Shown here in pieces: positions 4,374-15,226 of a stretch of 32,000 bases of DNA. The translations under genes and the position numbers were made by a program. Source of the stretch: Coprobacillaceae bacterium. GTDB taxonomy: Bacteria > Bacillota_I > Bacilli_A > Erysipelotrichales > Coprobacillaceae. The stretch lies in the NCBI GenBank assembly GCA_963675515.1, contig OY776328.1:330001-362000 (forward strand). Reading direction: 5' to 3'. The notes under the pieces were generated by a model, which saw nothing but the letters and a program-made list of their open reading frames with translations, was not told where the DNA came from and did no database searches. Each line of letters begins with the position of its first letter. Within the stretch, counting starts at the first letter, position 1.

Positions 4374-5576
4374 ATGTTACAATTAGAGGATTTCAAAGAA
4401 GCAAGAAAAAGGGTGGACGAGGTTATCTTGCAAACACCGCTGATATATTCACAGTCATTCAGTGATGAATGCGATAATCAGGTGTACATAAAACCCGAAA
4501 ATCTTCAGAAGACTGGAGCATTTAAAATCAGAGGTGCTTACAATAAGATAAGCAAACTGCCTGATGCGGCTAAAAGAAAAGGTTTGATTGCATCTTCAGC
4601 CGGAAACCATGCTCAAGGTGTAGCATATGCGGCTAAACAACAGGGCGTCGAAGCGACAATCGTAATGCCTGCAGGTACTCCTTTGATCAAAGTTAATGCA
4701 ACAAAGGCGTTGGGTGCCAAGGTTATCCTCCACGGGGAGGTCTATGATGAGGCTTATCAAAAAGCCTGCGAACTCCAAAAAGAGCATGATCTCACATTCA
4801 TTCACCCGTTCGATGACGAGGATGTTATCGAGGGGCAAGGCACCATCGCTTTGGAGATACTCGAAGAAATGCCTGACGTAGATGCGATAATTGTTCCCAT
4901 TGGCGGTGGCGGTCTGATTTCTGGGATCGCGGCCTGTGCCAAAGCCATCAATCCAAACATCAAGATCATTGGGGTGGAACCTGAGGGGGCAGCAAGTGCC
5001 GAAGCGGCAGTCAAAGAGGACAAGATCTGTCTTTTGTCGGAAGTGAATACCATCGCGGATGGAACGGCGGTAAAGCAAATAGGTGTCAAACCATTCGATT
5101 ATATCAGGCGATACGTCGATGACATCATTCTGGTCAACGATTATGAGCTGATGGAGGCGTTCCTTATACTGGTTGAAAAACACAAACTGGTGGCAGAGGG
5201 TTCTGGAATTTTAGCTTTGGCGGCGACAAAGAAGCTTAACTTCAAAGACAAAAAAGTGGTTGCTTTGGTTTCGGGAGGAAACATTGATGTTTTGACCATT
5301 TCATCGATGATCAATAAAGGACTTATCTCCCGTGGCAGAATTTTCAGCTTTTCCATTCAATTGCCTGACAAACCAGGCCAACTGGAATTAGTTTCACATG
5401 TGCTTAACGAACTTAATGCGAACGTGATTGGTGTCGAACATAACCAGTTCAAGAATTTCGCGCGTTTTTCCGAAGTTGAATTGCGGGTTACCTGCGAGAC
5501 TTCAGGTGAGGAACACATTGCAAAAATTATCGAAAGATTCAATGATTTGGGTTATGAGATAGTCAAAGTCAATTAG
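4374..5576 (+). CDS. ilvA: Threonine ammonia-lyase (threonine dehydratase), short form with one C-terminal ACT-like domain
   Basis: PLP-lysine context TGAFKIRGAYNK, plus SSAGNHAQGVAYAA and the glycine loop PIGGGGLISG. About 80 aa of regulatory tail follow; RBS is AGGAGG. Confidence 0.85.
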   Translation: MLQLEDFKEARKRVDEVILQTPLIYSQSFSDECDNQVYIKPENLQKTGAFKIRGAYNKISKLPDAAKRKGLIASSAGNHAQGVAYAAKQQGVEATIVMPAGTPLIKVNATKALGAKVILHGEVYDEAYQKACELQKEHDLTFIHPFDDEDVIEGQGTIALEILEEMPDVDAIIVPIGGGGLISGIAACAKAINPNIKIIGVEPEGAASAEAAVKEDKICLLSEVNTIADGTAVKQIGVKPFDYIRRYVDDIILVNDYELMEAFLILVEKHKLVAEGSGILALAATKKLNFKDKKVVALVSGGNIDVLTISSMINKGLISRGRIFSFSIQLPDKPGQLELVSHVLNELNANVIGVEHNQFKNFARFSEVELRVTCETSGEEHIAKIIERFNDLGYEIVKVN

Positions 5577-5829: not shown

Positions 5830-8202
5830 ATGATGAACACTTTTGGAAAACGAAAGCCGATAATTGCCTTTCTAATACTACAAATTATAATTTATCTCTC
5901 AATCATCAATGTTAATGGCGCTTCGGCTCTGTCTGTATTGGAAAATGTTCCCTATCCTTTTTATCCTGCAATGAATTCGAACCTTTACCAGGTGGACGTC
6001 AATGTCGGATTCAACCTGAATCCCTCGAAGACACCACAGGTGGCGGGGACCGCCATTTCAGAAGGAATAAGTGAAGATATCAATTTGATCAAGGCTCTTT
6101 ATTATGGCTATCTGGGACCGGGCAATGTGATGGGCAATCTGACGCAGGATCAACAAAAAACCTATACCCATCTTCTGGCGAGCTATATCTATTCCGGTGA
6201 CATGGCCGGCTTCAATTTCTATACCCTGATGAGCTATTTCAACTGCAATCTTATTGATTACTACAATCAGCTGCCATATCTTGGCGACCCCAATCATTAT
6301 GAATTGGGTTTTACCGAAGACAACCTGGTGTTTACCAGTGACGGAATGGTTCAAAGGTCAAACAGTATCAGATTGGTTGCGACTGAGTGGACCTGGGGAT
6401 ATTTCGATCTTCCTGCTGGTCTGACATTGGTTAATGAGACTTCGGGAACGACAACTTCATCACAGCGATGTTACCTCCAGGCTCAGGACATGTTTCACTT
6501 TGAAGCATCCCCGGATTACCTGGGTGAGGTGGAAATCCTTGATTTCTACCTGAATCTCAACGTATTCAATTATCAAGTCCGCTTGGTCAAGACTCAAGGA
6601 ACGGTTGATCTGGCTGATCCGAACAATGACGGATATGCGACAGTAGGTTCTTTGATCAGGACACCAACCATCCTGAGTACGGCGTTGAGCCTGGACTTCC
6701 AGTTCAAGCCGAAGGTTGTAATCAAGACAATGTCGGACTCGTTGAGCTCGATAGCCGATCAGATGATCAAGATAACTGGTCCGGATTCGTTTGAGAAAAA
6801 CCGCCTTAGCGATGACGCGGGCGAAGTAGAACTTGTCAATCTGGAACCGGGGACGTATTACATCACAGCGACAGATGCGAACTTCCCTTATAAGGAAAAT
6901 ATTGGGACGTATAGTGTCACTGTTGATTTTCGCCAAAAGAAAAATGTCGAAGTGATTTTTGAAGAGATTCACCAGGCGACCGCCAGATACCATCTCAACA
7001 TGGAAGACCCACCACTGTTGGTTGAGGATTTCAATGTTCAGGCAGATTATGGCACCGTGGGGTTTGACGATTTTTCTATGGAAGGATATTCTCCAATAAG
7101 CATTTCGGTTGTAAAAGACGGAGTGGTTCAAGAGATATCGAACCAGACAGACGAGGTCGCCAACGGGATTGTAATCGAAGCGGTAAACTTCCCTGATTAT
7201 CTGACTTTTGAAAGTGGATCCTATTATCTCGATGTCAATATTGAAGCTGATTTAACCAAGGTGGCAATACCGTTATTTGATGGCCGCAATGGGGTGATAG
7301 ATGTGACAATGGTCGATGATACGAATTTGCGGGAGATGATTTTCACCGCCACCAGCGCAAGCTGCCACTTTCAGGAAGATGATGTGACCGAGTCGATGAC
7401 AATCGTCGATTTGAACATCGAACGTTTCAACAAGCCGGGAGTCGCGGTAGTCGAATTCGACTACCTGAGCCCTGATGGTTTGCATTTTAAAACAAGCTAC
7501 AACGTCCTTGTTGTCGACTTGAAAACCGGCGATCAGGCAAGCTTGGTCCGGTTCATCGATAAGGAAAATCTCAATGAACTAAACAGCGGATTTTTTGGAA
7601 CAGATACAGCCGCAAAAGAATTGTTAGGATCCAGCCTTGACAGGCAAAACCCGGCAATTTCATATCAGCTCGATGACAAAAGTTTGAAAATGATCAAGAA
7701 TGGATATCTGGAAGATCCCGACTTCGACATTTATCAAAACGAGACAATAGCCAACAGCATGACAAAATACGACAATCCAATTGAAGATGGTCAAATCACT
7801 GTGACCCAAACAGGCAGCCAGGCCATCCTGGTTTTTGAAGGGGGGGAAACCGTAGACGATAATGGTGTATATATGAGTATTTCGAAGTATCAAAACGGGC
7901 AGGTGGAATGCTTGCTTGGCTTAAAAGACGGGTATTTTGGTTCTTTGAGACTCAGTCTTGATGATATGTCAACCGATCTGACTGGAGCGATATTCGAAGG
8001 GGTAGTGGCGCAAAGCTATGACGGAACTCCGAAATATCCAATTCCGGTCATATATTTACAAGACAGAAAACTGATTCCAGGCCGTGATTTCCAGCTGGCA
8101 TATTCCAGCAACGTTTCGGTCGGGGAAGCGACCATCAATGTGATGGGTATCGATGATTATCAAGGTGGATTTACAATAAAATTCCAAATAGAAGGAGAAT
8201 AA
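5830..8202 (+). CDS. Large secreted surface protein (790 aa), first gene of the pilus-like operon; possible adhesin
   Basis: Signal peptide MMNTFGKRKPIIAFLILQIIIYLSIINVNGASA. ITGPDSFEKNRLSDDAGEVELVNLEPGTYYITATD resembles SpaA/Cna-B-type stalk domains. The C-terminal YDGTPKYP...YSSNVSVGEATINVMGIDDYQGGFTIKFQI resembles YDG...GNY Ig-like repeats of Firmicutes surface proteins. No LPXTG motif. The stop is 1 nt before the next ATG. Confidence 0.75.
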   Translation: MMNTFGKRKPIIAFLILQIIIYLSIINVNGASALSVLENVPYPFYPAMNSNLYQVDVNVGFNLNPSKTPQVAGTAISEGISEDINLIKALYYGYLGPGNVMGNLTQDQQKTYTHLLASYIYSGDMAGFNFYTLMSYFNCNLIDYYNQLPYLGDPNHYELGFTEDNLVFTSDGMVQRSNSIRLVATEWTWGYFDLPAGLTLVNETSGTTTSSQRCYLQAQDMFHFEASPDYLGEVEILDFYLNLNVFNYQVRLVKTQGTVDLADPNNDGYATVGSLIRTPTILSTALSLDFQFKPKVVIKTMSDSLSSIADQMIKITGPDSFEKNRLSDDAGEVELVNLEPGTYYITATDANFPYKENIGTYSVTVDFRQKKNVEVIFEEIHQATARYHLNMEDPPLLVEDFNVQADYGTVGFDDFSMEGYSPISISVVKDGVVQEISNQTDEVANGIVIEAVNFPDYLTFESGSYYLDVNIEADLTKVAIPLFDGRNGVIDVTMVDDTNLREMIFTATSASCHFQEDDVTESMTIVDLNIERFNKPGVAVVEFDYLSPDGLHFKTSYNVLVVDLKTGDQASLVRFIDKENLNELNSGFFGTDTAAKELLGSSLDRQNPAISYQLDDKSLKMIKNGYLEDPDFDIYQNETIANSMTKYDNPIEDGQITVTQTGSQAILVFEGGETVDDNGVYMSISKYQNGQVECLLGLKDGYFGSLRLSLDDMSTDLTGAIFEGVVAQSYDGTPKYPIPVIYLQDRKLIPGRDFQLAYSSNVSVGEATINVMGIDDYQGGFTIKFQIEGE

Positions 8203-8203
8203 G

Positions 8204-8359
8204 ATGAAAGATTTTTTAGGCGAATATGGTTTGATTGTGGTTACTGCTCTGGTGATTTTGGCTTTTGTGGTAATTGGTCCCGAAGTTGGGAACCAAGTCG
8301 GTGATGCCATCAAGACTCAAGTCACTAATATTACAACTCAGACCGCACCTGGAGCTTGA
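8204..8359 (+). CDS. Flp-like pilin, 51 aa, near-leaderless (not in the ORF track)
   Basis: GAAGGAG RBS (8191-8197). Translation is MKDFLGEYGLIVVTALVILAFVVIGPEVGNQVGDAIKTQVTNITTQTAPGA. It has the EYGLI core plus hydrophobic helix of Flp/Fap pilins. An in-frame TAG at 8189 excludes a longer leader. Confidence 0.7.
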   Translation: MKDFLGEYGLIVVTALVILAFVVIGPEVGNQVGDAIKTQVTNITTQTAPGA

Positions 8360-9375
8360 TGGACTTGATTGACAAGATGATTCCCCGAGAGATATTCGGG
8401 GAATTGTCGGTATTTTTGGATGACGAGAATATCACCGATATCAATTACAATGGGAAAAACGTGTGGGTTGACCATATATTCAAGGGCCGGTATAAGGCAG
8501 ATGTCATATTGAGCGAAGAGTTTATCGATACATTTATCATGAAAATTAAAAACAGCGTATCCAGGAATTTCAATATCGAACATAACGTGCTGGAAGCCGA
8601 AACCGAACAATTGAGAATTTCAGTCATCCACCACTCGGTGGCGAAGACCGGTACAGCAATTTCAATAAGGAAGTCTCCACCAAGGCAAAGGATGAATGCG
8701 AAAATGATGATTGAGACGGGATACTGTTCCCAGGCTATAATTGATTTTTTATCCAATTGTATAAGATCATCTTGCAATATAGTCATTGCCGGGACAACCG
8801 GATCGGGTAAGACGGAATTGCTCAAGTGGCTGACCAATTTCATCGAAGCCAACGAGAAGGTCATCACGATTGAGGACAACCTGGAAATCCATTACCGGCA
8901 GATAAATCCGGGAAAGGACTGTATTGAATTGAAGGTTGACGAGAAACTGTTCAACTACTCAAAAGCGATCAAGACATCATTGCGCCAGCTGCCACAGTGG
9001 ATCATACTTTCCGAGGCCCGCTCGGTCGAGGTCAAGTATCTCCTTGAGACGTTCTCAACTGGCCATAATGGAATCACCACCATCCATTGCGACGATGTGC
9101 GAAAGATACCAAAACGAATAAAAAACATGATCCAGGCCGACATTGACGAGTCAGTCCTTTTTGACGACATTTTCAGTTTTATTGATATCGGAATATTGAT
9201 TTCCAAAGAAATAGTCAACAATAAGATCCAACGTCATATCGAGCAAATATGCATATATGATTTTGTGGAAAACAGAAGGGAGATATTGATGGTTTACGAA
9301 AGGGGCCATATCCCCTTGCGTCTGGAATCACCGAAATTGAAACGGAAATTTGAAGGTCTTCAAGGAGGAATTTAA
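8359..9375 (+). CDS. TadA/CpaF/VirB11-class secretion ATPase (338 aa)
   Basis: ATG overlaps the pilin stop (TGATG). ITDINYNGKNVWV N-domain, LRISVIHHSV...AISIRK, Walker A AGTTGSGKTELL, ITIEDNLE, a LRQLPQWIILSEARSVEV Asp-box/Walker B region, and His box TGHNGITTIHCDD. The last codons and stop may be supplied by the IS left end. Confidence 0.8.
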   Translation: MDLIDKMIPREIFGELSVFLDDENITDINYNGKNVWVDHIFKGRYKADVILSEEFIDTFIMKIKNSVSRNFNIEHNVLEAETEQLRISVIHHSVAKTGTAISIRKSPPRQRMNAKMMIETGYCSQAIIDFLSNCIRSSCNIVIAGTTGSGKTELLKWLTNFIEANEKVITIEDNLEIHYRQINPGKDCIELKVDEKLFNYSKAIKTSLRQLPQWIILSEARSVEVKYLLETFSTGHNGITTIHCDDVRKIPKRIKNMIQADIDESVLFDDIFSFIDIGILISKEIVNNKIQRHIEQICIYDFVENRREILMVYERGHIPLRLESPKLKRKFEGLQGGI

Positions 9376-9431
9376 TAGCTGAAAATATGCAATCATATCC
9401 GGCTTCCCGATGAAATCCCTTAAAAATCAAT

Positions 9432-9695
9432 GCGGACGTTGGATCTGGAATTAATTATAAGAAAAAAGGGTTGAGGGAATTGCTGCAATTAATCATCCAA
9501 ATAAAATCGGAAAAGCTGTTGTGTTATATAAAGACATGCTTTTGCGTTTTGGATATGAATTAATTTAGTATATGGCGAGTCTATATAATTGTGAAATAGA
9601 AATAGTCGACAATACACCAGAAACATACCAAAACAGGGGGTCAATGCAAAAGAAGGGATAAAACCAAAAAGAAAATCGAAGCCGAGTTTCTATGA
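9432..9695 (+). pseudogene. tnpA: tnpA (IS607-type serine recombinase) fragment, lacking the HTH and catalytic-Ser region, with stops and frameshifts
   Basis: Reads ADVGSGINYKKKGLRELLQLI...LLCYIKTCFCVLDMN*. A frameshifted reading gives ...VVLYKDMLLRFGYELI, the KDRLxRFG motif region. Coordinates are approximate. Confidence 0.6.
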
Positions 9696-10486
9696 TGATA
9701 ATGTTAAAATCATATTCACTGATACTGATGTCAAGCTTGAAGAGCTATCTGATTCTACAAAAGGCAACAAAAGAAAATTCAATATGGTAAAACTTGCTGA
9801 AAAATGAATAATAGCAACTGATTGAAAGTGTTCCAATCCTAGAGTCACTTATGATGGATTGAATTTTTGGATAAGTGTCGGAGTTTGGATAGGTTTGGGA
9901 ATTAAAGACTTGGCTATTTGTTCAGATGTTGGCACCCACAAGAATATAAACAAATCCAACGAAATTAGGAAATTTAATAAGAAAAGGCGTGGATTGCAAC
10001 GCAAGATAAGTAGGAAACACTTAAAAAATAAGGAAGGGAGCAAATACTGAAAACAAGCAATATTATAAAAAGGGAAAAAGAACTTTCAAGATAAATCGTC
10101 GTTTAACCAATATTCGTCAAAACTGTCAACATCAAATTACAAACGAGATAATAAAGCGAAATCCTAAGTTTATTACACTTGAGGATTTGAATGTCAATGG
10201 CATGATGAATAACAAATATCTCTATAAAGCCATTTGGCAACAAGGATTGCATGAATTCAAGAGAATCTTGCAATATAAGTGTGTTTGGAATGGCATTAAA
10301 TTGAGACAAGCGGATAGATTCTATCCCAGTTCAAAAACATGTTCTCGCTGCGGATCAATCAAGAAAGATTTAAGGCTTTTTGATAGAGTATATAAATGTG
10401 AAGGTTGTGGATTTGAGTTGGATAGGAATTTAAACGCCAGTTTGAATTTGAGAGATGCAAAACAATATAAAATACTCACATCTTAA
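9696..10486 (+). pseudogene. tnpB: tnpB (RuvC-like RNA-guided nuclease) pseudogene, N-terminal third missing, with frameshifts and stops
   Basis: WIGLGIKDLAI (the RuvC-I GIDLG motif with the Asp codon now GGT), IRKFNKKRRGLQRKISRK, a TGA after GSKY, and a frameshift. An open tail then follows: NIRQNCQHQITNEI...ITLEDLNVNGM (RuvC-II), CSRCG...CEGCG zinc finger, and DRNLNASLNL (RuvC-III). Only the last 99 aa form an ORF (10187-10486). Confidence 0.8.
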
Positions 10487-10657
10487 AGTGGGTTTATGTG
10501 TACTGTGCGTTAAACATGAATTTACGCCTTTGGAGTGTTATTTCAAATGCAAGTAGCTTAATCGTAGAATATGCAAAAGCGGACACGATGAATAAGTAAT
10601 GGAACATAGAAATTTGAATATAAAAGTTTATGACCTTTTATAAGTTTTCAGTAACGG
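10487..10657 (+). ncRNA. Candidate omega-RNA (reRNA) scaffold tail of IS copy A
   Basis: A 171-nt non-coding stretch between the tnpB stop and the right end, conserved (roughly 85 percent by eye) with 14185-14355. TnpB guide RNAs are known to be encoded at this position. No structure was computed. Confidence 0.35.
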
Positions 10658-10662
10658 CAACT

Positions 10663-12126
10663 ATGAAAATTGAGCTCAAACGTTATTTCAAAGTTCAAAG
10701 CGAGGTTGAACGGTACGGTTACAACTTTTCAATCAGGCGTTTTTATCAGGTGATTGCCTTTTCGGTGATGCTTGTCGCAATCCTTGGAATTGTGTTCAAA
10801 CTGGGCCGTGTTTATCTCGGTTGTGTGATTTTCACCATGATCGCCTGTCTGCCCCAGATAATTGTCGTAACCTATCGGGGGCTCGATTCGCAGCAGCGAT
10901 TCGATGACTTGAACAATTACCTGGAGCAGCTGGTGATGTCATTCAACCGTCGTGGCAATATTCTGGTTGCTCTCAAAGAGACAAGACAGATCTTCGCCAA
11001 CGGCCAGATGGCTGTGACGCTGGACCAGGCTATCGCTCATATAACTGGGGCAAGAGGCGGCAATGCTTACCAGGAAGGATTGAGCATCATTGAAGAGCGC
11101 TACAGCTGCTCAAGGATCAGTAAAGTTCACAATTTTCTTTTTGAAGTTGAAAAATTGGGCGGTGACTATGGAGATGTCCTCAATCTGATTGAACAGGAAA
11201 GACTGCTGTGGCAGGAACGAGTTTACCTTTTGGCGGCACAAAAAAAGCAGATTGAAAAGAATATATATTTGTCATGTGTGATGGCGACGATAATTGGAGC
11301 GGTGATGGGCATGATCCTGCCAAGTGAGCTAAATGTATTTGCCCTGGGGTATCTGCAACTTCTTTCAACCGGATACCTGGTTGTCGTGATTGTAATGGTC
11401 ACTGTGGTCCATAGCTTGCTTAGCGGCGGCTATTTTGAGGAACTGCGATTCCTTGATAATGATGAATTCGACAAACACGTGCGCCTGTATCGTCAAAACA
11501 GTTTGTTCAATAAGGGCGATATCGTATCCTTGGCGATTGTATTTGCGATTGGCGCTCTTGTCGTGTTCACTGGACAAGGGATAGGGGTTATTCTGTCCGG
11601 TCTTATTTTGACAATCATTCTGGCGAGAGTTTTGGGCCGGAAGAAAAGAAGCCTGAAAATCATCAGGTCAAATCTGGAGATTGCCTTCATGCACTGGATG
11701 CTCGACATTTCATTGCTGCTGCAAAACAACAACATCCATATGGCGGTGATTCAGTCAATTGAAAAAGCGCCCGGGATACTTCGGTCAGATCTTGAATTGC
11801 TTAATGAAAATCTGGAGAAATTTCCGAATTCGATGGTGCCATATCAAAATTTTCTTAGTGAATTCGATATCCCTGATGTGAAGTCGGTCATGAGGTCGTT
11901 TTATGCTTTGGACATGAACGGTACTGGGAGTAACGGAAAATTCCTGAACGATCTGCTTGAGCGCAACAATCATCTGGTGGACAAGACGGAAAGGATGGCG
12001 ATGGAGAACCGTTTGGCCTATATAAATGTCTTTTTGTATCTGCCGATGCTGCTGGCGACATTCAAATTGCTTGGGGACCTTACCGGGTTTATGATGGTCC
12101 TGATTGTGAAAATGAAAGGAGGTTAG
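10663..12126 (+). CDS. Fused TadB-TadC-like pilus platform protein (two T2SSF-type halves, 487 aa)
   Basis: Two repeats of TM segments plus a ~110-aa helical cytoplasmic domain plus TM pair (about aa 60-230 and aa 330-487). Examples are LNNYLEQLVMSFNRRGNILVALKETRQIF...LGGDYGDVLNLIEQE and LEIAFMHWMLDISLLLQNNNIHMAVIQSIEKAPGILRSDL. The native start is taken as ATG 10663, because the ORF-track start at 10630 lies inside the IS right end. Confidence 0.7.
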   Translation: MKIELKRYFKVQSEVERYGYNFSIRRFYQVIAFSVMLVAILGIVFKLGRVYLGCVIFTMIACLPQIIVVTYRGLDSQQRFDDLNNYLEQLVMSFNRRGNILVALKETRQIFANGQMAVTLDQAIAHITGARGGNAYQEGLSIIEERYSCSRISKVHNFLFEVEKLGGDYGDVLNLIEQERLLWQERVYLLAAQKKQIEKNIYLSCVMATIIGAVMGMILPSELNVFALGYLQLLSTGYLVVVIVMVTVVHSLLSGGYFEELRFLDNDEFDKHVRLYRQNSLFNKGDIVSLAIVFAIGALVVFTGQGIGVILSGLILTIILARVLGRKKRSLKIIRSNLEIAFMHWMLDISLLLQNNNIHMAVIQSIEKAPGILRSDLELLNENLEKFPNSMVPYQNFLSEFDIPDVKSVMRSFYALDMNGTGSNGKFLNDLLERNNHLVDKTERMAMENRLAYINVFLYLPMLLATFKLLGDLTGFMMVLIVKMKGG

Positions 12127-12131
12127 GTCCG

Positions 12132-12230
12132 ATGATTGAAATAATTGGCGAATATGGCCAGGTTATTGTGCTTGGGATTTTCAGTACGATATTGATAAGT
12201 GCTTTTGGTTATCTGGCGACACTTATATGA
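12132..12230 (+). CDS. Flp-like micro-pilin, 32 aa (not in the ORF track)
   Basis: AAGGAGG upstream. Translation is MIEIIGEYGQVIVLGIFSTILISAFGYLATLI, with the same M-x4-GEYG plus helix as 8204. Its stop overlaps the next ATG (ATGA). Confidence 0.55.
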   Translation: MIEIIGEYGQVIVLGIFSTILISAFGYLATLI

Positions 12231-12370
12231 GAGCGCTGGTGGGTGAATACGGAATGGTTGTTTTGGGAGTTACTGTGACTTTCATCCTGTTGGAACTTGT
12301 TGGGGAACTTTTGGGAAGCGACATGCTTTTTGAACTGGTGCGAATCAAGGCGGACTGCTTGTTCTTATGA
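12227..12370 (+). CDS. Flp-like micro-pilin, 47 aa (not in the ORF track)
   Basis: Translation is MRALVGEYGMVVLGVTVTFILLELVGELLGSDMLFELVRIKADCLFL. ATGA overlaps occur at both ends. Confidence 0.55.
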   Translation: MRALVGEYGMVVLGVTVTFILLELVGELLGSDMLFELVRIKADCLFL

Positions 12371-12834
12371 AACATGTGATTGAGAGTTACGGCCAGGTGA
12401 TAGTAGGAATGCTTTTGGTTATGGCGGCACTGACATTTTTGAATTTCTCATCGAACGAGGCGCTTGAACCTTCATTGAAGAGCGCTGTGACTGTCGACGG
12501 AATTGAAGTTCCAGCTCCACAGTTCGTTCCAAATAATATTATATCGTATCCCGGATTGGTTGATCCGTTTTCCCTGATCGCCAATACTGACGAAACTCTT
12601 GATGGATTTGCCTACTGGAAAACCCAAGGCAATATTATCTATTATAGTGATGGCGAATACAATAAAATCATGTTTCAAAGTGAGTTTGTCTCGGGTTCTT
12701 TGCTCGATTACACCTCTGTCGATTTCCATGACTACCACTGTTTCATTGACAAGGTAAAAGTAACGGCAATAATCAAAAGCCGGATAAGTGTTAAAAACGC
12801 CACTATAATGATTGAGGAGGAGTTTGATAGTTGA
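12367..12834 (+). CDS. Pilin-like / TadE-class pseudopilin, 155 aa
   Basis: MKHVIESYGQVIVGMLLVMAALTFLNF, then a ~125-aa globular part. The last 4-5 codons and the stop probably derive from the IS copy B left end. Confidence 0.65.
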   Translation: MKHVIESYGQVIVGMLLVMAALTFLNFSSNEALEPSLKSAVTVDGIEVPAPQFVPNNIISYPGLVDPFSLIANTDETLDGFAYWKTQGNIIYYSDGEYNKIMFQSEFVSGSLLDYTSVDFHDYHCFIDKVKVTAIIKSRISVKNATIMIEEEFDS

Positions 12835-12903
12835 AAATAAGTTGTAAAACTACTCAATTAACCATCAAATACATGTGAGTTCGATATTTGATTATCGTCG
12901 CTT

Positions 12904-13501
12904 TTGAAAAACTACCAACAGTGATTTTTCAGAAATATTTGGAGTTACAGCTCAAACTTTAAGAAATTGGGACAATAAAGGCAAGTTACATCCCCATCAC
13001 ACTTCGTCAAATGGATATAGATATTACTCTCACAATCAGATGCATCAAGTTATGAACATAAGGCCTAATATAGAAAGATTGACAATTGGGGATTGTCGGG
13101 TGTCTGGCCACAAACAAAATGACGATTTGGAACGACAAATTCAAAAAATGAGAACTTATCTCTTATCACAAGGTAAACTAATTCAAATAATTGAAAATAT
13201 TGGCTGTGGAATCGACTATAAGAAAAAAGGATTGAGAGATTTGATTAAGCAAATAATGCAAAACAAAGTTGATGAGGTGGTTGTGTTAAATTAAAGACAG
13301 GTTGTCAAGATTTGGATTTGAACTATTGGACATTATGCCAGCCTATATAATCGAGAAATAGAAGTAGTTGATAATACACCAAAAAATAATCAACAAGAGC
13401 TAATATCCAATTTGGTTCAAATAATTGCCTATTTCAGCTGCAAGCTTCAATGCAAAAGAAAGAATAAAACCAAAATGAAAATCGAAGCCGTGTTTCTATG
13501 A
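12904..13501 (+). pseudogene. tnpA: tnpA (IS607-type MerR-HTH serine recombinase) pseudogene
   Basis: A TTG start gives MKNYQQ, followed by a frameshift, then SDFSEIFGVTAQTLRNWD...RVSGHKQNDDLERQIQKMRTYL...GCGIDYKKKGLRDLIKQI...VVVLN*. Shifted frames then give KDRLSRFGFELL and YNREIEVVDNTP...QELISNLVQIIAYFSCKL. Coordinates are approximate. Confidence 0.75.
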
Positions 13502-14184
13502 TGATAATGTTGAAATCAAATTCACTGATACTGATTGCAAGTGTTCCAATCCTAGAGTTACTTATGATGGATTGAATTTTTGGATAAGCATCGGAGTTGA
13601 ATGCGATAATATCAGTGAGATTGACAAAAATAATCATGGTATTGGAATAGATTTGGGAATTAAAGACTTGGCTATTTGTTTAGGTGGCAACACCTACAAG
13701 AATATAAACAAGTAAGATAGAATCAGGAAATTTAATAAGAAAAGGCGTAGATTGCAACGCTATATAAGTAGGAAATACTTAAAAAACAAGGAAGGGAGCA
13801 AATACTGCAAAACAAGCAATATTATAAAAAGGGAAAAAGAACTTTCAAGATAAATCGTCGTTTAACCAATATTCGTCAAAACAGTCAACATCAAATTACA
13901 AACGAGATAACAAACATCTCTCTAAAGCCATTTGGCAACAAGGATTGCATGAATTCAAGAGAATCTTGCAATATAAGTGTGTTTGGAATGGCATTTAATT
14001 GAGACAAGCGGATAGATTATATCCCAGTTCAAAAACATGTTCTCATGGCAAATCAATCAAGAAAGATTCAAAGCTTTTTGATAGAGTTAATAAATGTGAA
14101 GATTGTGGATTTGAGTTGGATAGGGATTTAAACTCCAGTTTGAATTTGAGAGATGAAATACAATATAAAATACTCACATCTTAA
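13502..14184 (+). pseudogene. tnpB: tnpB pseudogene (N-terminus deleted, RuvC-II segment deleted, zinc-finger Cys lost)
   Basis: GIGIDLGIKDLAIC is retained (RuvC-I). A TAA follows NINK. About 60 nt present in copy A (KRNPKFITLEDLNVNGMMNNKY) are missing. CSHGK replaces CSRCG. The tail CEDCGFELDRDLNSSLNL is retained. Confidence 0.8.
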
Positions 14185-14355
14185 AGTGATTTTATGTGTA
14201 CTGTACGTTAAACAGGAATTTACACCTTTGGAGTGTTATATCAAATGCAAGTAGCTTTACCGTAGAACAAGCAAAAGCAGACACGATGAATGAGGAATGG
14301 AACATGAAAGTTTGAATCTAAATAATTATGACTTTTTATAAGTTTTCAGTAACGG
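14185..14355 (+). ncRNA. Candidate omega-RNA (reRNA) scaffold tail of IS copy B
   Basis: Collinear with 10487-10657 and ends at the same ...CAGTAACGG. Confidence 0.35.
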
Positions 14356-14360
14356 TACAG

Positions 14361-14678
14361 ATGAAAAATACGATTGAACTCTATATGTCAATAATCATAA
14401 TCACGATATTCGGCGTGCTGGCAGCCAACATGATCGCGATAAACGTCGAGGCGAACAATGTCCGCAGCTACCAAAACTCCTGCATCCAGGCGATTGAGAA
14501 CAGCGGTCATGATCAGGGAGTGATAGATCAGCTGATTTCAGATTCACCTTATGATCTGAGTGTCGAGAGGATCGTCAGCGATGGCAGCGTCTTAAGCAAA
14601 GTCCAGGTCGGCTATCATTACGTGATCCCGCTTCTCAATGTCAATGAATACTACAGCATATCGGGGTTGGCGAGATGA
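14361..14678 (+). CDS. Pilin-like / TadE-class pseudopilin, 106 aa
   Basis: MKNTIELYMSIIIITIFGVLAANMIAI has the same register (x-x-x-x-E-L-Y) as the other pilin-like proteins. The ORF-track start at 14328 lies inside the IS right end. Confidence 0.6.
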   Translation: MKNTIELYMSIIIITIFGVLAANMIAINVEANNVRSYQNSCIQAIENSGHDQGVIDQLISDSPYDLSVERIVSDGSVLSKVQVGYHYVIPLLNVNEYYSISGLAR

Positions 14679-15226
14679 AACAGGCATTGATGGCTGCAAG
14701 TCTTCTAGCCATGTCAATTGCGACTATAGTGATAATACTTTCATCCAATTTTCAGGTCAACAAAGCCACGATGTTCGAACAGACAGTCAGTCAGAGCCTG
14801 ACAAAGAGCCTTGAGGATATGTGTTTTTATCATCCGGATCTAAACTATGAACAAATCATCAATGGATATCTAAGCGATCTTGCGGTGAATCTCAATGGGA
14901 CAAACAGAATCAAAGTCGACGTCATCGCAATCGATCGCAATTATGGAATCATCGATACAATCAATGAACTTACCTACAACGATTTTTTCAACAACGAAAA
15001 GACAATCACATTAAGGAAAACAATCATCCACAATCCCCAAATCCAGGATGAATATTTCCGGGTCGACTTTGTCTTTGAAGATGCTTTCAAAGGAGCTTTG
15101 TTTGTGAATCCGGGCACTACCATCGCCCAGGCTATCAGCGATTTTGCTTTTCAGGCGGATTGGAATCTGAGTGGCTACGACATTCAAGAACCGATTGAAA
15201 GAGACATTGTTATATACGCAAATTAA
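14675..15226 (+). CDS. Membrane-anchored pilus accessory protein (TadF/TadG-like position), 183 aa
   Basis: ATGA overlap with the upstream gene. A single N-terminal TM, MKQALMAASLLAMSIATIVIILSS. It is the last gene before the terminator. No recognisable catalytic motif. Confidence 0.55.
   Translation: MKQALMAASLLAMSIATIVIILSSNFQVNKATMFEQTVSQSLTKSLEDMCFYHPDLNYEQIINGYLSDLAVNLNGTNRIKVDVIAIDRNYGIIDTINELTYNDFFNNEKTITLRKTIIHNPQIQDEYFRVDFVFEDAFKGALFVNPGTTIAQAISDFAFQADWNLSGYDIQEPIERDIVIYAN

Follow-up and report, generated by a model that had tools for sequence, protein, structure and literature searches.

In both bacteria and archaea the core of a type IV filament is taken to include a prepilin peptidase and pilins carrying a cleavable class III leader, in addition to an ATPase and a platform protein (PMC6668835). 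The systems closest to the one considered here are the Tad/Flp pili, represented by those of Caulobacter crescentus (CpaF–PilA, 8U1K) and Aggregatibacter (Flp1–TadA–TadB/C–TadV), and the archaeal type IV pili Ups, Aap and Epd, which are processed by PibD or EppA. Imam et al. (2011) described tad-like loci of clostridia (C. kluyveri, C. cellulolyticum, C. bolteae and others) in which a leader-based predictor found no prepilin motif (PMC3244431). We have analysed a 32,000-nucleotide stretch of DNA from a Coprobacillaceae bacterium (assembly GCA_963675515.1, contig OY776328.1, positions 330,001 to 362,000 of the forward strand; hereafter the window, with positions counted from its first letter), in which pilus-type genes are found on the + strand between ilvA (4374–5576) and carA/carB (from 15480). 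On balance, we read the region at 5830–15226 (+) as a minimal filament locus of a Tad-like (type IVc-like) kind, carried by gut Firmicutes (Erysipelotrichaceae, Lachnospiraceae). We also lean, with comparable and modest confidence, towards a minimal Tad-like filament system whose pilins are not processed.

The resemblance to Tad/Flp pili is most evident in the pilin. The candidate for the major pilin (8204–8359, +), which starts with MKDFLGEYG, has 51 amino acids (aa) that form one hydrophobic helix and a short tail. As in the Caulobacter and Aggregatibacter systems, the locus encodes a single-helix E-Y-G pilin of 50–60 aa, with some 20 hydrophobic residues and a short polar tail; the pilin gene adjoins that of a TadA/CpaF-related ATPase; and several pilin-like accessory genes follow the presumed platform gene. 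When a profile of the pilin family was compared with the PDB (177,635 sequences), the top two matches were solved Tad pilins, Caulobacter PilA 8U1K (E 0.005) and the Flp pilin 8U2B. The alignment placed query residues E7-Y8-G9 on mature E5-Y6-G7 and ran to the C-terminus, indicating that the primary product corresponds to a mature Flp pilin with two additional N-terminal residues. Scores against family models were weaker. The 51-aa window pilin reached 17.6 bits against Pfam Flp_Fap (PF04964), below the gathering cut-off of 32.2, with Glu7 on profile position 12, and 28 family members gave ten weak matches to Flp1_like, nine to Flp_Fap (best E 0.0034) and seven to Arch_flagellin, all sub-threshold. 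A preliminary description of this DNA, made from the sequence alone, had called the proteins Flp-like, and this identity is supported by the structural matches together with the weak Flp_Fap and Flp1_like scores.

Flp pilins are recognized by two features, and only one of them is found here. These small proteins do have Glu-Tyr(-Gly) ahead of a hydrophobic stretch of about 20 residues. The leader feature, G/XXXXEY with Gly at −1 and cut by TadV, is lacking: five residues precede [E/G]EYG, the slot of Gly −1 is taken by Lys2 and there is no conserved Gly. Compared with Tad/Flp pilins, therefore, the locus pilin has neither leader nor Gly −1, reads as mature Flp preceded by Met-Lys, and conserves a second acidic residue. 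It had been argued in the preliminary description that the +5/+6 register of Glu and Tyr would hold only if two residues were removed with no Gly at −1, and the alignment of E7 to mature E5, with Lys2 in the −1 slot, agrees with this argument.

The same description had listed five pilin-like N-termini in the window, and these read as originally given, at 8204, 12132, 12227, 12367 and 14361. When the window is translated in all six frames, M-x4-[GE]-[ESL]-Y-[GM] is matched five times, always on the + strand and always at one of the reported starts; with an expectation of 0.045 per window from shuffled sequence, the motif occurs far above chance. Shine–Dalgarno sequences precede the starts at 8204 (GGAG) and 12132 (GGAGG), and those at 12227 and 12367 lie in ATGA overlaps with the preceding stops. 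A longer leader for the 8204 gene is blocked, as had been claimed, by an in-frame TAG, which is present at 8189–8191, four codons before the ATG. The proposal that the five are paralogues with one fixed N-terminus holds for four of them (8204, 12132, 12227 and 12367) and fails for the protein at 14361, which belongs to another family.

Homologous loci allowed these starts to be examined across many genomes. Through the ATPase (46–85% identity) we found 35 related loci in species-representative genomes, carried by Lachnospiraceae (Faecalicatena, Lactonifactor, Robinsoniella, Blautia, Muricomes, Anaerostipes and 'Ruminococcus') and by metagenome-assembled genomes (MAGs) of Erysipelotrichaceae. 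The same linkage recurs in 79 further metagenome loci, mostly from the human gut, with the ATPase adjoining the pilin in 75 of them. The conserved gene order is a 50–59-aa pilin, the ATPase, a membrane protein of about 500 aa, two small EEYG proteins, a larger EEYG protein, a 105-aa family and a 183/196-aa family. In most of the 35 genome loci a pilin gene of the 8204 type directly precedes that of the ATPase, small EEYG genes occupy the position of the 12132 gene in nearly all loci, and the 12227 protein also has homologues. A single-sequence search with the 51-aa pilin detected three relatives only, and a look-up of contigs by exact sequence gave none. Profile searches yielded 247 homologues in a large protein database and, among 1.84 billion representatives, 681 representative clusters (50% identity) at E ≤ 1e-3; many matches of the latter search are 140–497 aa long and are modular pilins with extra C-terminal domains.

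In the 35 genome loci, 118 genes start with M-K-x-[F/I]-[L/I/M]-[E/G]-E-Y-G, and the start is located exactly five codons before [E/G]EYG in every one of them. ATG is the start codon in 96 cases, TTG in 15 and GTG in seven, and a Shine–Dalgarno site precedes 112 of the genes; an in-frame stop is found no more than five codons upstream in 47, and 71 are without any alternative upstream start. The motif itself is nearly invariant (E7 in 117, Y8 in 118 and G9 in 113) and is followed by the hydrophobic helix. Position 6 is more variable, with Glu in 82 of the 118 genes and in 119 of 137 representative major pilins. The Gly of GEYG is thus a minority state of a family whose consensus is EEYG, and is not a conserved candidate cleavage residue.

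These data also bear on whether the short N-termini could be an artefact, such that the true starts lie upstream and include normal leaders, or that the reading frames arose by chance. A few database entries are indeed annotated with longer N-termini: 124 of the 247 homologues were retrieved, and while 113 are annotated with the five-residue start, 11 have upstream extensions. These extensions are unconserved, however, and nine of the 11 hold an internal M-K-x-F-x-E-E-Y-G (two are without that Met). Similarly, profile position 1 coincides with protein residue 1 in about 139 of the best 150 of the 681 clusters, and among ten exceptions that were examined, nine contain M-K/Q-x-F-x-[E/S]-E-Y-G as an internal start, while the remaining one begins seven residues before EEYG. 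Conservation of the family across all 681 clusters also speaks against chance, and we consider an artefact of either kind very improbable indeed. Truncated or mis-called starts in particular are ruled out by the upstream stops, by the Shine–Dalgarno sites, by the use of GTG and TTG at the identical position and by the 113 concordant annotations. Had homologues carried long leaders with Gly at −1, the starts in the window would have appeared truncated; the homologues carry no such leaders, the spacing of five residues before [E/G]EYG is conserved and the leaderless start is genuine. Judging from these alignments, the short N-terminus is a hallmark of the family.

We looked for a prepilin peptidase in the window and within 10 kb on either side of 114 related loci (35 genome and 79 metagenome loci). 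There was no Peptidase_A24 domain in any sizeable open reading frame (ORF) of the 32-kb window, and no two-aspartate A24 motif pair in the 1.58 Mb comprising the window and all of these loci, in a test that detected the E. coli GspO control. Conserved neighbours include no A24 peptidase, and the polytopic ORFs of the flanks encode transporters and similar proteins. The absence of a peptidase gene, first remarked on for this locus, therefore extends to the 10 kb around each of its relatives. Two candidates for the missing enzyme were rejected. An Rce1-like (CPBP) protease, rejected as a core part, is encoded upstream in 11 loci and is absent from the window and from most loci. The possibility that a peptidase is hidden in the membrane protein of about 490 aa was discarded, as this protein lacks the two-aspartate A24 motif and its sequence matches nothing in Pfam, NCBIfam or the PDB.

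The Rce1-like gene (L006:8303-9238 in one related locus, with counterparts in ten other Faecalicatena-type loci) adjoins the pilin gene in five loci and is separated from it by glutamate synthase genes in six, and appears to be a shared genomic neighbour, not a component of the system.

Absence from the locus is, on its own, weak evidence for peptidase independence, because TadV can be encoded apart from its pilus genes, MSH loci are without a peptidase gene and peptidases can be shared between systems (PMC6668835). The strong evidence is that neither a leader nor a conserved Gly is present, and a further line may come from the composition of the first nine residues. Of the 137 representative major pilins, 131 have Lys as the second residue, 113 have Ala, Ser, Thr or Gly as the third and 129 have Phe as the fourth. 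Lys2 and Phe4 are each 94% conserved; prepilin leader peptides are usually far less conserved than this. Among 130 distinct major-pilin N-termini, counted without correction for phylogeny, an acidic residue is present at position 6 only in 108, at position 3 only in 17, at both in one and at neither in two, and the side-chain charge of residues 1–9 is −1 in 125. The minority state with the acid at position 3 is found in at least five separate sequence clusters, in which position 6 is Gly, Ala, Ser or Asn.

An acid at position 3 or 6, almost never at both or neither, is sensible only if Lys2 and residue 3 are both kept in the mature protein. Provided that the alpha-amino group is free, this condition is also the only one under which the charges of the N-terminal segment cancel exactly, and the canonical mature Flp N-terminus (amine plus Glu5) is likewise neutral. 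Charge compensation between positions 3 and 6 thus suggests retention of Lys2 in the mature pilin. It adds one new, indirect line of support to the peptidase independence put forward in the preliminary description, which we regard as plausible. Removal of Met-Lys would restore the exact Flp register but would need a cut after Lys, and we know of no prepilin peptidase that cuts there.

The same residues can be read in another way, as an ultra-short leader, M-K-[A/S/T/G], which is removed by an A24 peptidase encoded elsewhere to produce a mature F-L-E-E-Y-G that, like type IVa pilins, has Phe at +1. The high frequencies of Lys2, of Ala, Ser, Thr or Gly at position 3 and of Phe4 resemble the archaeal rule, by which −2 is basic and −1 is Gly, Ala or Ser; the K-[A/S/G]-hydrophobic sequence at positions 2–4 of the major pilins would be such a site in 113 of 137 if cut after residue 3. 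Some leaders of archaeal pilins are very short: Sulfolobus PibD accepts and cuts engineered leaders three to four residues long, and the natural leader of UpsA is so short that a gel does not resolve it (PMC4187195). Peptidase genes are, moreover, often located apart from the pilus locus (PMC6668835). This reading encounters difficulties with the acidic residues at position 3, however, as Asp or Glu is found there in the window major pilin (Asp3), in 18 of the 130 distinct majors and in most short minor pilins (Glu3, as in MKEFLEEYG), none of which fits the archaeal −2/−1 rule. To our knowledge, an acidic −1 residue is not an established substrate for any prepilin peptidase. Compensation of an absent acid 6 by acid 3 in at least five lineages would be hard to explain if residue 3 were discarded, Glu-Tyr would fall at +4/+5 and thus off the register of the Flp alignment, and no A24 gene is present near any of the 114 related loci. 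We therefore view an ultra-short leader as unlikely, though far from negligible.

The missing leader and the charge pattern together favour no cleavage. Translation without a class III leader gives a product, M-K-x-F-x-E-E-Y-G, that is the mature Flp motif after Met-Lys. In a system of unprocessed pilins, these proteins would enter the membrane as made, and the ATPase and platform would incorporate them into the filament uncut by any A24 prepilin peptidase. The small positive cap normally given by the leader would come from Lys2, whose charge would be offset by the second acid (at position 6 or, failing that, position 3), such that a neutral N-terminal segment packs in the filament core. A bolder form of this proposal, to which we give slightly less than even credence, is that these loci represent the first type IV filament lineage without a prepilin peptidase, in which pilins are born mature with a charge-balanced N-terminus and a core of pilins, ATPase and fused platform might be enough for a Tad-like fibre on gut Firmicutes.

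Several points weigh against unprocessed pilins in a Tad-like filament. The combination of Ala, Ser, Thr or Gly at position 3 with Phe4 in the major pilins also fits a K-[A/S/G]↓F cleavage site, and a ComC/PilD/TadV-type peptidase encoded elsewhere in the genome could act on the pilins. The covariation of positions 3 and 6 comes from the uncorrected counts given above, and formylation of Met1 would change the charge arithmetic. In the solved Tad pilus, residues 1–9 are tightly packed in the core and Tyr6 is positioned under residue 1 of the next subunit (PMC10710030), so that a fibre with two extra residues per subunit must pack differently. The window pilin misses the Pfam Flp_Fap cut-off. 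Finally, assignment of the platform, described below, rests on position, topology and non-significant fold matches.

The ATPase (8356–9375, +; 339 aa) has a Walker A motif, GTTGSGKT, and matches Pfam T2SSE at 1.3e-25. Its best solved relatives in the PDB are archaeal GspE 2OAP (3e-23), CpaF (1e-19), FlaI (2e-16) and VirB11 (1e-14), and its NCBIfam matches (VirB11, TadA-conjugal, TrbB and FlaI) are all below the cut-offs. The protein thus appears to belong to the archaeal GspE / CpaF(TadA) / FlaI / VirB11 group. The VirB11/TrbB ATPases of type IV secretion are similar in length (about 330 aa), and the locus ATPase is sub-threshold against both of these models. In contrast to type IV secretion systems, no VirB4, VirD4, VirB6 or relaxase gene was found among the window ORFs or conserved neighbours, the partners of the ATPase are Flp-type pilin-like proteins, and both CpaF and archaeal GspE outscore VirB11 in the PDB comparison.

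The gene at 10663–12126 (+) encodes a polytopic membrane protein of about 487 aa, which we presume to be a fused platform analogous to PilC/GspF/TadB-TadC and which is conserved beside the ATPase in all 35 genome loci. This protein has no Pfam, NCBIfam (including T2SSF) or PDB sequence-profile match, nor any match to E. coli HofC. An AlphaFold2 (AF2) model from an eight-sequence alignment was all-helical with a predicted local distance difference test (pLDDT) score of 72. In Foldseek this model matched the PilC N-terminal domain 2WHN with a probability of 0.9 and a target-normalised template modelling score of 0.62–0.68 at an E-value above 1; other high-probability matches were to the EpsF cytoplasmic domain (0.6–0.8) and to PilC in 3JC8, again with E-values that are not significant. 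Platform proteins were the only high-probability matches, and the N- and C-terminal halves are weakly similar to each other (E 0.007), as expected of a duplicated platform protein. A fused platform is the likely identity, given the model and the gene position.

A cytoplasmic motif of this protein, Y-x-C-x-R-[IL]-x-x-x-H-[DN]-F-L-x-x-V-E-x-x-G-G-x-Y, is strongly conserved; its Cys149 and His156 do not vary among 17 sequences, and the latter is invariant in a second alignment as well.

The gene set is smaller than that of Tad/Flp systems. No TadZ/CpaE, RcpC/CpaB or TadE/TadF domain from Pfam (TadE) or NCBIfam was detected in locus proteins or conserved neighbours, and TadV was not detected in the locus. 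A TadB/TadC pair with T2SSF was not found, its place being occupied by the one presumed fused protein of about 490 aa, and the ATPase is short. The clostridial loci of Imam et al. differ in the same respect, as they are reported to hold tadV, tadZ and rcpC homologues (PMC3244431) that the present family is without. Archaeal type IV pili have the same compact set of an ATPase, a single platform (a presumed one in the locus) and several pilins, and the likeness extends to the ATPase, for which an archaeal GspE is the best solved relative and FlaI also scores. The locus differs from these archaeal systems in being bacterial (Firmicutes), in its Flp-sized E-Y-G pilin, in the acidic position 3 of many members and in having no peptidase gene nearby. 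Taken together, these comparisons suggest that the system would work most like a Tad/Flp pilus with a compactness resembling that of archaeal type IV pili, while falling outside both canonical Tad and Pfam Flp_Fap membership.

Such a reduced machine need not build an external pilus. The small proteins could instead assemble into a short pseudopilus anchored in the membrane, or could simply be membrane subunits of a machine for secretion or display, comparable to the type II secretion endopilus or the archaeal bindosome. The role of this machine would be export or presentation of the neighbouring large surface proteins and not formation of a long adhesive fibre. Large surface proteins with Sec signals and no LPXTG are always adjacent (of the thioester type in the window and in its closest relative, L001, and of 870–1600 aa in 12 other loci), there are no TadZ or RcpC-type parts, and the ATPase also scores against VirB11 and TrbB models. 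Gene content is nonetheless pilus-like, with a 50–60-aa pilin of the abundant type (three in tandem in one locus), minor pilins and modular pilins with leucine-rich repeats (LRRs); the best structural relatives of the pilin are subunits of Tad pili; and genes for VirB4, VirD4 and relaxase were not found. We consider a pseudopilus rather improbable, and the display role equally so. Either would concern the output of the machine and would leave the leaderless finding unaffected.

If unprocessed pilins are confirmed, a large and conserved leaderless Flp-like family would be an exception to the rule of peptidase and leader, and cleavage would prove mechanistically dispensable for the exit of a pilin from the membrane and for its polymerisation. 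Leader-based predictors cannot find these pilins, which have no above-threshold Pfam or NCBIfam match and are listed by NCBI as hypothetical; JGI annotation labels some members 'Flp pilus assembly pilin Flp'. Counts of pili in the Lachnospiraceae and Erysipelotrichaceae that are common in the human gut are therefore probably too low. A literature search on leaderless pilins, the EEYG motif, peptidase-independent pilins and Lachnospiraceae Tad pili found no description of the family, in a search that left most subscription journals outside its scope. Without the insertion sequence (IS) remnants described below, the locus occupies about 7 kb, and the adhesins linked to it (thioester, LRR and repeat-rich) point to attachment to the host or the mucus layer as a possible role. 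A link to phages or plasmids was considered and rejected, as no relatives were found on viral contigs and the flanks hold housekeeping genes.

Downstream of the platform gene, three further members of the family are encoded on the + strand, all candidates for minor pilins. The first two are leaderless proteins of 32 aa (MIEIIGEYG; 12132–12230) and 47 aa (MRALVGEYG; 12227–12370). The third (MKHVIESYG; 12367–12834) has 155 aa, with a C-terminal domain of about 120 aa, and is a candidate for a modular pilin. Across loci, the larger EEYG protein varies from 146 to 374 aa, forming a cluster of 146–164 aa in 14 loci and a 374-aa cluster with BspA-type LRRs in eight. One of the latter (L009:12723-13847, with equivalents in L014, L016, L018 and L033) combines a leaderless MKVFIQEYG start with a BspA-type LRR region in 374 aa, and looks like a modular pilin with an adhesin-like domain. 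In a Blautia MAG (L011:9047-9844), three tandem and nearly identical major pilin genes are found upstream of the ATPase.

The 105-aa leaderless pilin-like protein at 14361–14678 (+; MKNTIELYM) represents the separate family noted above, which is present in 30 loci. The consensus of this family is M-K-G-A-[V/I]-E-[T/F], with Glu at position 6 and without conserved Tyr-Gly; the Tyr of the window copy recurs only in L001 and two other members. A single-sequence AF2 model (pLDDT 76) predicts a helix of 46 residues (2–47) followed by a small beta-sheet, which has the general shape of a pilin, and a fold search of the PDB with this model gave nothing meaningful. The adjoining gene (14675–15226, +) encodes a 183-aa pilin-like candidate with a leaderless N-terminal hydrophobic helix. 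Its family (MKNAVIGFF), which was absent from the list in the preliminary description, has no Glu and is found in 29 loci, always after the 105-aa gene.

All reading frames of the window locus are intact, and L001 has the same gene set and order minus two decayed IS remnants. In the window, copy 1 (about 9400–10657, +) separates the ATPase and platform genes and copy 2 (about 12850–14355, +) the 155-aa and 105-aa genes; the left boundary of each is approximate. In L001 the 155-aa and 105-aa genes are contiguous, and copy 1 is also absent. The two copies are 86–98% identical to each other and both contain TnpB/Cas12f-like fragments, with a Cas12f1-like_TNB match of 2.8e-22 on the ORF at 10187–10486 of copy 1. 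Copy 2 also holds a serine-recombinase fragment (Resolvase N-terminal domain, 8e-8, on 13040–13294). Each remnant ends about 6 nucleotides before the next start codon (10663 for the platform, 14361 for the 105-aa gene) and has replaced the native ribosome-binding region. The IS end also creates an artefactual extension, MTFYKFSVT, on both ORFs, taking the platform back to 10630 and the 105-aa gene back to 14328 (11 codons). As the remnants directly precede the platform and 105-aa genes, the locus may be poorly expressed in this genome.

Upstream of the pilin, a gene at 5830–8202 (+) encodes a 790-aa secreted surface protein with Pfam matches to a thioester domain (TED_2, 1.2e-12) and a SpaA-like prealbumin-fold domain (6e-4), a Sec-type signal peptide and no LPXTG; thioester adhesins are usually sortase-anchored. 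Its stop is one base before the pilin start at 8204, and the gene occupies the same place in L001, this coupling being seen in the window and L001 only. We regard the protein as a candidate adhesin linked to the pilus. Elsewhere (L003:14268-19085, L020:14538-19340, L034:14560-19128 and nine other loci), secreted proteins of 870–1600 aa without LPXTG are encoded after the 183/196-aa gene, and the one that was scanned has a Listeria-Bacteroides repeat domain. About nine of these 12 large proteins have in common a conserved C-terminal motif some 45 residues long, W-x-F ... V-x-x-[IV]-K-x-Y-[IV]-x-[ED]-H-G-I-G-N-S, which may act as a pilus-docking module. Immediately after the pilus genes, one locus (L006:14571-15722) and nine others have a gene for a PcsB-like peptidoglycan hydrolase with coiled-coil and NlpC/P60 regions, which could open the wall for the fibre or could merely be a neighbour of rpsB and tsf.

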